A stretch of 64,000 nucleotides of DNA from a virus: the IMG/VR virus record IMGVR_UViG_3300045988_058615, positions 5,350-69,349 of that record; one strand, given 5' to 3'. Of this stretch, positions 30,256-32,990 are shown piece after piece; the stretch's first letter is position 1; every line of letters begins with the position of its first letter. The notes beneath the pieces were generated by a model. That model worked only from the letters and a program-made list of their open reading frames with translations, searched no databases and was not told the DNA's origin. A program made the position numbers and the translations under genes.

Positions 30256-30486
30256 ATGAAAAAGTTAACAATTATTTCATTGGGGTTGGCTCTATTGTGT
30301 AGCTGCTCTAGACCGACTCTTGAGTCAGAGGCAACAAAGAGTGTTCCAGATGGAATCATTCCGTTTGACGCTGTGATTCACTTTCGGTACAAAAATCATT
30401 ATTACATTAAGTTTACTGAGGGATATGAAAGATCTAGAACCAGTGGGGTAGTTCATGACCCAGATTGTAAATATTGTAAGAGATGA
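30256..30486 (+). CDS. Putative lipoprotein, 76 aa
   Basis: MKKLTIISLGLALLCSCS has a signal peptide and a Cys lipobox-like motif. Confidence 0.5.
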   Translation: MKKLTIISLGLALLCSCSRPTLESEATKSVPDGIIPFDAVIHFRYKNHYYIKFTEGYERSRTSGVVHDPDCKYCKR

Positions 30487-31001
30487 GCGAAGTGTATTAT
30501 CTTTTGGCAGCCATTTCATATGGCATTTTTCTAGTTCAATTCATTTTATCTTGGTTTGGTGGAAACACTGACTTAGATGTTGACTTAGATGGAGAACTAG
30601 ATATGAACGTGAGTGATATTGTCTCATTTAAGGGATTAATCCATTTTATAATGGGAGTTAGTGGATGGCTTTGTGTTAAGCAGTCCATATCTCATTCTGT
30701 AGAATGGTATGATTATCTAATCGCATTAGTGTGCGGTATTCTTTTCGTGGTTATACTTTACTACTTATATAAACTCTGTTTAAAACTCCAGCATCAAGTC
30801 ATTCCAGAAGAGGGTGAAGCCTTGATTGGAAGGGTCGGAATTATCACAGTTCCTTGTGAAAGCCATTTCTTTATTACTATTGAAGTAAATGGATGTTCCG
30901 AGGAAATTGTAGCCTATCCTGAGGTTCCAAAGATGAGCTATAAGGTAGGAACTCGTGTGATAATTTCTAAGTTTGAGAATGGAAAGTATTATTTTAACTA
31001 A
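30483..31001 (+). CDS. NfeD-like membrane protein, 172 aa
   Basis: N-terminal transmembrane helices plus a C-terminal beta-rich domain (GRVGIITVPCESHFFITIEVNGCSEEIVAYPEVPKMSYKVGTRVIISKFENGKYYFN). It sits immediately upstream of an SPFH gene, which is the classic NfeD-SPFH pairing. Confidence 0.5.
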   Translation: MSEVYYLLAAISYGIFLVQFILSWFGGNTDLDVDLDGELDMNVSDIVSFKGLIHFIMGVSGWLCVKQSISHSVEWYDYLIALVCGILFVVILYYLYKLCLKLQHQVIPEEGEALIGRVGIITVPCESHFFITIEVNGCSEEIVAYPEVPKMSYKVGTRVIISKFENGKYYFN

Positions 31002-31016
31002 AAAGAATTTTAAAAG

Positions 31017-32990
31017 ATGACAACAGGAACTCTTATTGTAGCAGGTGTTATTGTATTACTCGTAGTTTTAACCTTTATCGGACTTTTGTCACGGTATCGC
31101 AAATGTGCCAGTGATGAAATTCTGGTTGTGTTTGGTAAGGCTGGTAAGAAGAAGGTAGTTAACGAGAAGACTGGAAAGTCGGAGGAAGTTATTCTGCCGT
31201 CCAAAATCATTCATGGTGGAGGTACATTCGTAATGCCGGTAATCCAGGACTGGGCTAAAATGTCCTTGAAACCTATCCAAATTCAAGTAAATGTTACTGG
31301 TGTTTCCAGTCAAATGATTAAGGTAACTATTCCTGTAACATTGACCACTGGTATTGGGACCACTCAAACATTGATGCAAAATGCTGCAAGTAGATTCTTA
31401 ACAGCTAAAACTTCTGAAATCTCAGACCAAATCAAGGATATTCTCATTGGTGAAGTGAGAAGCTTGATGGCTACGATGACAATTGAGGAAATTAACGCTG
31501 ATAGAATCAAGTTTATCGGCAAAGCTAAAGAGAATATTGAGACCGAGTTGAATAAAGTAGGTTTCAGTATTATCAACATTAACAATGCTGATATTTCGGA
31601 TGATGCAAACTATATCAAGAATCTAGGTCAGAAAGCTGCAACTAAAGCTCTTGCTCAGGCACAGGCTGACATTGCGGAAGAGAAAAAGAAAGGAGATATC
31701 CAGATTGCAGAAACCAACAAGCAGCGCGAGATTGCTGTAGCAGACGCTGAGAAAGAGCGTGAAACTACTGTTGCCCAGACTAGACAAGAGCAAGAGGTTC
31801 GTGTGGCAGAGATTAACCAGGAGAAGGAAATCAAACTTGCAGAAGCTGAGAAGAATAAGCAATCAGGTATTGCTAATCAGAAAGCTGAGCAAGCTGCTAA
31901 TATTGCTAAAGCTAATACTGCAGCGGAATCGGAGAAAGCTAAAGCAGAAGCTGAGAAAATTTCAGCTATAGCTAAAGCTCAAGCAGAAGCCGATTCTAAT
32001 AGAGCAGAGTCTGAATCACTGGCTGAGGCTAATGTAGCCAGGGCTAAAGCAGAAGCTGACTCTAAGAAGGCAGAAGCAGAAGCAGAGAAACAAACTCGTA
32101 TTGCTCAGGCCAAACAGAGGCAGGAAGCCGAGACGCAAAAGGCAATTAACGAACAGGAAGCTGCAGTTGCTAAGTATGAGTCAGACAAGCGTGTAAAGGC
32201 AGCTGAAGCTGATAAGATTGCAGGAGTGGCAGAACAAAATGCCACAATTGAAGTCTCTAAAGCTAAGGGAGAAGCTGAGAAAGCTAAGGCTGAAGCTGAA
32301 AAGGTAGCAGGAACTTCTAAAGTAGAAGCTCAGATGACTATCGAAAAGACCAAGCAAGAAAAGCAACTAGAGGTGAATGAGGCAGCTGCATTGGCTATGG
32401 AAGCTAAGCTTCATGCTGAAACGATTGTTCCCGCTCAAAAAGAAAAGGAACGTATCACGATTGAAGCAGAAGCTGTAAAGCAGAAAGCTGTGCTTGAAGC
32501 AGAAGCTAAGGCTGCTGAGATACTGAAAGAAGCAGAAGCTAAGGCAAATGCTACTAAGTTACAGTTAGAAGCAGAAGCAGAAGGTACTAGAAAGAAACTG
32601 CTTGCTGAAGCAGAGGGTAAGAGAGCATCTTTGATGGCTGAGGCTGACAAGGTTCAGGCTATTGAAATGGCTCCTGCTCTGGCAGTCCAGAAGATGATTG
32701 AATCCGGCTTGACTCCAGAAATGGTGGTTCAGTACAAGACAGTTGATCAATTGACCGGTATTGCTGAAGCATCTGCTCAGATGTTTGAACACGTTCACCT
32801 TGGACAGGTTACTGTTTATGGTAACGAGAACACCGCTGGTAACTTTATGGCTAAAACTGCCGAGAACTTGAATCCTGCGTTCGACTTGCTTCGCTCTATA
32901 CCTTTTGCCGATACACTGAAAAGTATTCTCGGTAAGAAAGGGTTGGAGGAGAAGAAAGCCGAAACAACTGAGTTTGAAGAAGTGAAGTAA
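31017..32990 (+). CDS. Flotillin-like SPFH/band-7 protein (YqiK/FloA-like), 657 aa
   Basis: N-terminal transmembrane helix, an SPFH domain (ILVVFGKAGKKKVV...IQIQVNVTGVSSQMIKVTIPVTL), and about 350 aa of EA-rich coiled coil (AEAEKAKAEAEK repeats). Confidence 0.7.
   Translation: MTTGTLIVAGVIVLLVVLTFIGLLSRYRKCASDEILVVFGKAGKKKVVNEKTGKSEEVILPSKIIHGGGTFVMPVIQDWAKMSLKPIQIQVNVTGVSSQMIKVTIPVTLTTGIGTTQTLMQNAASRFLTAKTSEISDQIKDILIGEVRSLMATMTIEEINADRIKFIGKAKENIETELNKVGFSIININNADISDDANYIKNLGQKAATKALAQAQADIAEEKKKGDIQIAETNKQREIAVADAEKERETTVAQTRQEQEVRVAEINQEKEIKLAEAEKNKQSGIANQKAEQAANIAKANTAAESEKAKAEAEKISAIAKAQAEADSNRAESESLAEANVARAKAEADSKKAEAEAEKQTRIAQAKQRQEAETQKAINEQEAAVAKYESDKRVKAAEADKIAGVAEQNATIEVSKAKGEAEKAKAEAEKVAGTSKVEAQMTIEKTKQEKQLEVNEAAALAMEAKLHAETIVPAQKEKERITIEAEAVKQKAVLEAEAKAAEILKEAEAKANATKLQLEAEAEGTRKKLLAEAEGKRASLMAEADKVQAIEMAPALAVQKMIESGLTPEMVVQYKTVDQLTGIAEASAQMFEHVHLGQVTVYGNENTAGNFMAKTAENLNPAFDLLRSIPFADTLKSILGKKGLEEKKAETTEFEEVK

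Follow-up and report, generated by a model that had tools for sequence, protein, structure and literature searches.

A flotillin and NfeD-like gene pair of apparent Bacteroidales origin in crAss-like gut phages

Background

What use could a bacteriophage have for a flotillin and its membrane partner? Few conserved membrane assemblies are less well understood than SPFH/flotillin cages, and what their NfeD partners do is still debated. The question is raised by a 64,000-nucleotide stretch of the IMG/VR virus record IMGVR_UViG_3300045988_058615 (positions 5,350 to 69,349 of that record, hereafter "the window"), in which three genes at window positions 30256-32990 encode a small lipoprotein, a short membrane protein and a flotillin-like protein. 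A preliminary description, made from the sequence alone, had read these genes as a phage-borne lipoprotein, NfeD and SPFH operon. The analysis reported here confirms that observation and supports its interpretation. By sequence comparison, the second and third genes are homologous to the nfeD-like/flotillin operon of Bacteroidales, and they are maintained under purifying selection in crAss-like gut phages of about 185 kb; the first gene is a separate, exchangeable accessory. As for what the pair does in a phage, maintenance of the inner membrane of the infected cell is the answer we consider probable.

Automated pipelines already label proteins of this kind "flotillin" (JGI, GenBank) and "NfeD-like" (UniProt), while a search of the literature on flotillin or SPFH in crAss-like phages, in csAssE-Sib (a second phage genome with the pair, treated below) or in Bacteroides phage genomes found nothing relevant. 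New here are the recognition of the complete host-type pair as a conserved unit, its apparent Bacteroidales origin and apparent double capture, and the variable lipoprotein slot. Coordinates of all features in the window are collected in Table 1, and L-numbers (L001, L003 and so on) denote related loci compared with the window.

The flotillin-like protein

The 657-residue product of the third gene has one strongly hydrophobic segment, at residues 6-24, in keeping with the N-terminal transmembrane helix proposed for it, and the basic residues RYRK follow this helix. Residues 47-223 match Pfam Band_7 (PF01145) at 71.3 bits against a cutoff of 23.6 (E = 1.3e-19), and the same model is passed by all six relatives tested. 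The preliminary description had staked its reading on a Band_7/SPFH match, and the reading stands. Between residues 224 and 545 (322 residues), Ala makes up 25%, Glu 18% and Lys 14%, and there is only one Pro; as a matter of composition, this fits the Ala/Glu-rich coiled coil of about 350 residues described earlier; the 112-residue C-terminus past residue 545 is less biased.

The SPFH domain is nearer to flotillins than to stomatin, prohibitin or HflK/C: a search of PDB sequences matches only flotillin-1 and flotillin-2 (E from 2e-17 to 7e-17) and the flotillin-2 SPFH domain 1win. In NCBIfam the only real match is a partial one to FloT (NF058507), and because it scores 135 bits against an equivalog cutoff of 700, the protein is classed by its score as flotillin-like, yet no FloT orthologue. 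The Pfam Flot model (PF15975) does not match the full-length protein; scanned alone, the C-terminal 196 residues score 19.9 bits (E = 8e-4) and fall short of its cutoff, which is 27. The flotillins of csAssE-Sib and of Phocaeicola vulgatus pass both Band_7 and Flot (Flot at 38 and 30.7 bits, respectively), and the window flotillin aligns end to end with each of them, at 39% and 36% identity. The N-terminal anchor and the motif SRYRKC..DE[IV]LVV[FY]GK are nearly identical in phage and host flotillins. PHROGs offers the flotillin only a marginal match, to phrog_200 "lipoprotein" (E = 0.001). A pairing of the lipoprotein with this coiled-coil protein as a phage spanin was considered and rejected; the SPFH domain is a true one, and the basic residues after the transmembrane helix predict a cytoplasmic orientation.

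A short, divergent NfeD-like partner

The 172-residue product of the second gene has transmembrane helices at residues 2-24, 49-70 and 75-102 and a predicted C-terminal five-stranded beta barrel of the OB type, like that of solved NfeD domains. It shows no match to a ClpP-type protease domain, and its length leaves no room for one. The family alignment runs from the first transmembrane helix through a conserved acidic loop to a helix with SFKG..HF..G, then to the third helix, the basic residues that follow it (YKLCLKLQH in the window) and the C-terminal domain, which begins with a nearly invariant G111..L114.G116 (GxxLxG). The acidic loop carries a DxDxDG-like motif (D32, D34, D36, G37, D40) and may be a divalent-cation site, with low AlphaFold2 confidence in this stretch. 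The window sequence of this loop between the first two helices (30576-30593, residues 32-37) reads DVDLDG, with DVNADG in P. vulgatus, and resembles calcium-binding loops.

Sequence models recognize this protein only at their margin. Pfam gives no NfeD match (PF01957) at E<=1, only chance-level matches to transmembrane segments, and PHROGs gives nothing for either this protein or the lipoprotein. PF01957 does match 4 of 30 close relatives weakly (best E 0.039) and, searched individually, 5 of 55 distant relatives (best E 4.4e-6). Two profiles were used, a close-family one (A2, also used for the locus scan) and a more diverse one (A3). A2 finds no NfeD among PDB sequences; the best PDB sequence for A3 is YuaF (2k14, E = 0.0017), exactly over the C-terminal domain; YuaF is the partner of FloT. 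A viral protein in BFVD with 75% identity bears the UniProt name "NfeD-like C-terminal domain-containing protein". We therefore file the 172-residue protein as a short, divergent NfeD, in line with the NfeD-type membrane protein of the preliminary description: its fold, architecture and operon position agree with the family, and the sequence model agrees marginally.

A profile search of 1.84 billion cluster representatives returns 910 members of this family (clusters at 50% identity). The P. vulgatus partner (177 residues; L062 4995-7254) is likewise missed by Pfam NfeD. This Bacteroidales-type NfeD-like family, defined here and overlooked by Pfam, appears to be an unrecognized divergent branch of NfeD.

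Phage context, conservation and origin of the pair

The window is phage DNA with a crAss-like genome context. Its tail protein is 59% identical to the counterpart in cr7_1 and 30% identical to that of Carjivirus communis; PHROG matches include tail, exonuclease, helicase and NAMPT (nicotinamide phosphoribosyltransferase) families; and related IMG/VR contigs measure 165-193 kb. One might still suppose that the operon is no phage feature at all, being either mis-assembled or mis-binned bacterial DNA or a neutral passenger, and there are indeed three near-identical contigs (L055, L056, L057) filed in metagenome-assembled genomes (MAGs) labelled Clostridium, Bacteroides and Gastranaerophilales. 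Those contigs, however, are 140-186 kb long, which is phage-sized, and belong to this phage lineage; the labels are binning artefacts and no guide to the host. Against the same supposition stand the crAss-like tail gene, exonuclease, helicase, 27 tRNAs and TAG-recoded late genes of the window, the same tRNA-flanked position of the operon in dozens of independent viral contigs, and ratios of nonsynonymous to synonymous substitution (dN/dS) of about 0.1. It is effectively refuted.

Within the lineage the pair is kept together. An NfeD-like gene lies directly upstream of the flotillin gene in 51 of 52 related IMG/VR loci, over a range of flotillin identity from 99% to 57%; in L031, the exception, no NfeD-like gene was detected and the flotillin has a truncated N-terminus. 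The dN/dS values are 0.08-0.13 for the flotillin, 0.1-0.2 for the NfeD-like gene and about 0.1 for the lipoprotein gene, whose distant pairs show saturation of dS. Each of the three proteins has many homologues and, judged by these ratios, evolves under purifying selection, so the operon as observed is not a product of chance.

The same pair occurs on bacterial chromosomes. In a scan of one genome per bacterial species, it is adjacent at 14 of 15 loci from the genome collection, 11 of which are Bacteroidales chromosomal contigs; it is found on chromosomes of Bacteroidaceae and Phocaeicola and also in Tannerella and Dysgonomonadaceae. In P. vulgatus the order is ybeY, the 177-residue NfeD-like gene, the 566-residue flotillin gene and mnmG, and the window NfeD-like protein is 39% identical to its counterpart there (the flotillins 36%, as above). 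NfeD-SPFH had been put forward earlier as a conserved bacterial pair whose synteny should be sought in other crAss-like phages; the Bacteroidales chromosomes bear out the former, and the synteny is present in the viral loci and in csAssE-Sib. A Dysgonomonadaceae MAG (L067 4989-5273) retains a truncated NfeD-like remnant of 94 residues with no flotillin gene after it.

The human gut genome csAssE-Sib (GenBank OR575929.1, 151 kb, with crAss-type ring and muzzle proteins annotated) carries the pair at 120146-122373 (L001 4420-6647), between acyl carrier protein and exonuclease genes, where the two products are annotated as "transmembrane protein" and "flotillin family protein". The flotillins of csAssE-Sib and P. 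vulgatus share 63% identity. A neighbour-joining tree, which samples a limited range of taxa and has one outgroup, groups the csAssE-Sib flotillin with Bacteroidaceae (100% bootstrap), and the window clade forms a branch of its own, sister to the Bacteroidales group. Only 3 of the 123 window open reading frames of at least 80 residues have a homologue in csAssE-Sib, and two of the three are the pair itself. The genomes share almost no other genes. On the simplest view, the host operon was captured twice, independently, by large crAss-like phages of two lineages that are only distantly related. The csAssE-type gene recurs in at least 166 further IMG/VR stretches (L073-L152 among the compared loci). 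Strong purifying selection keeps the complete pair in two lineages of phages that abound in the human gut (about 185 kb and about 150 kb), a natural gain-of-function setting in which its benefit during infection must repay about 2.5 kb of genome. The only other window frame with a csAssE-Sib homologue encodes a hypothetical protein (53% identity).

An exchangeable lipoprotein gene

The product of the first gene begins MKKLTIISLGLALL-C-S-C17, with L-[C/F/Y]-S-C at positions -3 to +1, and at least 90% of 22 homologues keep C17. This is a signal peptide that ends in a lipobox; at the level of the motif it would make the protein a signal peptidase II substrate, in agreement with the earlier identification of a 76-residue lipoprotein. 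Other conserved features are a core rich in beta structure and a CxxC near the C-terminus. Its structure model is of poor quality and gives no fold match.

Homologues of the lipoprotein are restricted to contigs of this phage lineage. The gene is present in roughly half of the close relatives and is absent from more distant phage lineages, from csAssE-Sib and from the bacterial loci. An unrelated exported protein of 72 residues (MKRIRLICMMAVVAIVTAVCCSFTSRED...) occupies the slot at L013 5243-5461 and also in L007, L014, L017, L021 and L034; its N-terminus resembles a signal anchor, and its gene likewise overlaps the NfeD-like gene by 4 nt. In L023 the slot is empty. The slot therefore has three allelic states, and the lipoprotein is not a conserved part of the module but a separate, exchangeable accessory gene, probably on the same transcript. 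L003 and the window share 99% identity in the flotillin and 95% in the NfeD-like protein, but only 71% in the lipoprotein, with a dS of 1.7, a pattern that indicates recombinational exchange at the slot.

Among small lipoproteins of phages, T5 Llp and the Cor proteins are classic examples of exclusion factors. It is accordingly worth asking whether the whole operon is an envelope-modifying or superinfection-exclusion cassette, in which the lipoprotein, possibly aided by a membrane platform made of the flotillin pair, alters the cell surface or the inner membrane and so blocks adsorption or injection by competing phages. The slot does resemble a moron or arms-race locus, given the divergence in L003, the alternative 72-residue protein and the empty state, and the overlap of 4 nt ties the lipoprotein gene to the NfeD-like gene. 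The pair, however, is kept without any lipoprotein in distant phage lineages, in csAssE-Sib and in bacteria, so that its function must be independent of the lipoprotein; PADLOC gives no match for any of the four proteins tested, and thus no link to a known defence system; and no homologue or fold connects the lipoprotein to a known exclusion protein. We judge this an unlikely account of the operon. The hypervariable slot itself may bear on phage-phage or phage-host surface conflicts.

Transcript, hairpin and expression

The three genes are co-directional on the plus strand at exactly the positions first described. Translational coupling had been proposed throughout; the overlap of 4 nt (ATGA) upholds it for the lipoprotein and NfeD-like genes, and the gap of 15 nt, with no overlap, does not do so for the NfeD-like and flotillin genes. 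The lipoprotein ATG lies just 22 nt past the end of tRNA-Trp. No sigma-70-like promoter was found in this gap (promoters of the Bacteroidales type were not scanned). Because of this spacing, and of the hairpin that abuts tRNA-Ser(GCT) at the other end, the operon and the tRNAs probably share a transcript that is subsequently processed.

The hairpin has a perfect 13-bp stem (-22.9 kcal/mol, z = -5.4 against shuffles). It had been described as the terminator of the operon; the hairpin is there, and the terminator role is not upheld. A canonical intrinsic terminator finds no support, as the loop of 25 nt and the tail AAUUUGG in place of a U-tract fail a simple terminator scan, which made no call at this site. 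The element may instead serve the stability or processing of the 3' end next to the tRNA. It is kept in close relatives, with a compensatory change from G-C to A-U in L014 and a one-sided change to G-U in L035, and in L026 the stem differs while the loop sequence is identical. More distant lineages have other hairpins at the same position, among them a canonical one with a U-tract in L032. Because the loop sequence is conserved where the stem is not, its sequence suggests that the loop itself is recognized by something. The loop (window 33010-33034; L026 about 7990-8020) contains …TAGTAAAGTATAACAA….

Recoding of the TAG stop codon is confined to the late genes of the minus strand. There, open reading frames of 303-792 residues with 2-34 in-frame TAGs each emerge only when TAG is read as sense; the plus-strand block, operon included, has essentially no such TAGs and needs no recoding, and the operon has no in-frame TAG. 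In this standard-code block the operon is surrounded by genes for replication, nucleotide metabolism and tRNAs, and from comparison with other recoded phages we infer that the block belongs to the early or middle part of the infection programme.

Table 1. Features of the window, with position 1 as the first nucleotide of the 64,000-nt stretch
Feature	Position	Strand	Remarks
Block of late genes, TAG read as sense	3012-16383	-	about 3.0-16.4 kb
Tail protein	4511-5686	-	
tRNA with CTA anticodon (amber suppressor)	21729-21801	-	ARAGORN, label "Pyl"
tRNA array (26 tRNAs), small open reading frames between	24202-48543	+	flotillin operon inside array, between tRNA-Trp and tRNA-Ser(GCT)
ARAGORN tRNA with four-base anticodon (gcag)	24202-24274	+	
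Membrane protein, 159 residues	29497-29976	+	phrog_33832 (E = 4.6e-5)
tRNA-Ser(TGA) and tRNA-Trp	30065-30233	+	directly upstream of operon
Small exported lipoprotein, 76 residues	30256-30486	+	accessory, variable gene upstream of NfeD-like gene
Short NfeD-like membrane protein, 172 residues	30483-31001	+	
Flotillin-type SPFH protein, 657 residues	31017-32990	+	
Hairpin after flotillin stop codon	32997-33047	+	fold; 13-bp stem, 25-nt loop
tRNA-Ser(GCT)	33053-33138	+	starts 5 nt past hairpin
Hypothetical protein with csAssE-Sib homologue	44070-44525	+	
Protein of 671 residues	45673-47688	+	phrog_1735
Nicotinamide phosphoribosyltransferase	56056-57618	+	phrog_448 (E = 2.5e-182)

What the pair may do in an infected cell

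The reading we consider probable is that the pair is a phage-borne, host-derived SPFH module that keeps the inner membrane of the infected cell ordered, intact and energized. The flotillin would be anchored in the host inner membrane through its N-terminal helix, with the remainder in the cytoplasm, an orientation suggested by the basic residues that follow the helix. Its coiled coil and Flot-like C-terminus would mediate oligomerization into a closed ring or cage of SPFH subunits that fences off a patch of membrane, and the NfeD-like protein would set its three helices in or at this patch and bind the flotillin with its OB domain, which the basic residues after the third helix would place in the cytoplasm. 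Such an arrangement resembles what PMC13086221 states of work cited there: in QmcA-YbbJ, 26 heterodimers build a cage that faces the cytoplasm; FloA-NfeD stabilizes unfolded proteins independently of ATP; and NfeD proteins are proposed to promote SPFH oligomerization. The operon would probably be made early or in mid infection, because it lies in the block free of TAG recoding among replication, nucleotide-metabolism and tRNA genes. The phage pair would then supplement or replace the host flotillin system, and its most likely purpose would be to keep the inner membrane ordered and energized and to hold or protect membrane proteins throughout infection.

Several points weigh against this. The window proteins fall below the Pfam thresholds for NfeD and Flot; we infer the oligomerization, the contact between flotillin and NfeD-like protein and the topology alike; the timing is read from genome position and codon usage; and membrane maintenance is the least specific of the purposes one could propose, which the present results do not separate from its rivals.

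A more specific purpose would be that of a client cage in the manner of HflK/C, with the phage assembly enclosing and restraining one specific membrane protein of the host, for instance the protease FtsH or a membrane-acting defence effector, and thereby protecting phage proteins or blocking abortive infection. HflK/C cages enclose FtsH, and stomatin cages enclose channels and transporters. The two apparently independent captures by two phage lineages suggest a specific benefit, and a coiled coil some 90 residues longer than that of host flotillins (657 against 566 residues in total) would alter the geometry of a cage. No protease or defence-related gene, however, is linked to the pair, and the closest solved structure is a flotillin rather than HflK/C, so we lend this reading little credence. 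The wider idea that the phage builds an infection-specific membrane compartment, a taller SPFH cage that encloses and neutralizes a particular inner-membrane machine of the host (FtsH or a membrane-disrupting defence effector, for example) or serves as a platform for phage replication or assembly, is a long shot; if it were true, the independent capture by two crAss-like lineages would represent a convergent and important counter-strategy of gut phages.

The pair might instead act by interference, its diverged subunits co-assembling with the 36-39% identical host pair or displacing it and so disabling a membrane-stress or signalling function. The presumed Bacteroidales hosts do encode a homologous pair, and the near identity of phage and host proteins at the N-terminal anchor and SRYRKC..DE[IV]LVV[FY]GK motif would suit co-assembly. 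Yet both partners are kept, under strong purifying selection along their whole length, as is expected of a self-contained complex and not of a poison subunit, and hetero-oligomerization is doubtful at 36% identity. We regard interference as very improbable.

Comparison with known systems

The Bacteroidales chromosomal operon is the closest known relative of the phage pair in layout, with the same two genes in the same order and at the same spacing. Its NfeD-like protein shares the three transmembrane helices, the acidic DxDxDG-like loop and the C-terminal beta domain, and its flotillin shares the N-terminal anchor motif. The phage flotillin differs in its longer coiled coil (by about 90 residues, as above) and in falling below the Pfam Flot threshold, and the phage copy differs in lying within a tRNA array and in sometimes having a lipoprotein gene in front.

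Other bacterial and archaeal pairs are less similar. Compared with YuaF (NfeD2) and FloT (YuaG) of Bacillus subtilis, the phage protein is no FloT equivalog, the host is a diderm and there is no third gene like yuaI. In QmcA-YbbJ of E. coli and PH1511-PH1510 of Pyrococcus the SPFH partners are stomatin-like, with short coiled coils, and PH1510 is a long NfeD with a ClpP-type protease domain, which the 172-residue phage protein lacks. The preliminary description had called the coiled coil of the flotillin one of the YqiK/FloA type. In E. coli YqiJ-YqiK, the upstream gene encodes a protein of the inner membrane whose C-terminal domain is of the OB type, and the downstream gene a flotillin-like SPFH protein whose coiled coil is long; by description, this layout is analogous to that of the phage operon.

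Among solved structures the complex of flotillin-1 and flotillin-2 (PDB 9bq2, 9l3g) contains the best sequence relatives, with matches (E about 1e-17) that span the SPFH domain and the first part of the coiled coil, and its C-terminal helical region also aligns weakly with the phage flotillin. Eukaryotic flotillins are hetero-oligomers with an acylation or hairpin anchor and no NfeD partner; the phage flotillin, unlike them, has a true N-terminal transmembrane helix and a longer coiled coil.

SPFH genes occur in large lytic phages too, including the T4-like phages 44RR, Aeh1 and RB43, the Vi01-like phages with their "SPFH band 7 lipoprotein", members of phrog_200 and Vibrio phage KIT04. The KIT04 flotillin has 473 residues and 32% identity to that of the window, and its upstream neighbour is an unrelated open reading frame of 82 residues, not an NfeD-like gene. 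None of these other phage SPFH genes has a recognizable NfeD partner; the complete host-type pair is seen only in the crAss-like lineages. The authors who described SPFH genes in T4-like phages, Vi01-like phages and Schitoviridae call their role unclear (PMC1524935, PMC10892097, PMC13239085).

Other features of the window

Several neighbours of the operon deserve mention in their own right. The window has 27 tRNA genes, all but one of them in the plus-strand array, and the first of the array has an undetermined identity in ARAGORN and a four-base anticodon, being either a frameshift-suppressor-like tRNA or a mis-call. The nicotinamide phosphoribosyltransferase would be an auxiliary gene for NAD salvage. 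In the 159-residue protein a signal peptide is combined with two or three hydrophobic segments toward the C-terminus, and its gene is kept directly upstream of the tRNA-Ser/Trp pair in close relatives. Homologues that match the 671-residue protein over its full length, with about 43% identity, are encoded by more than 450 large phages, which infect Salmonella, Klebsiella, Caulobacter, Bacillus and other hosts.

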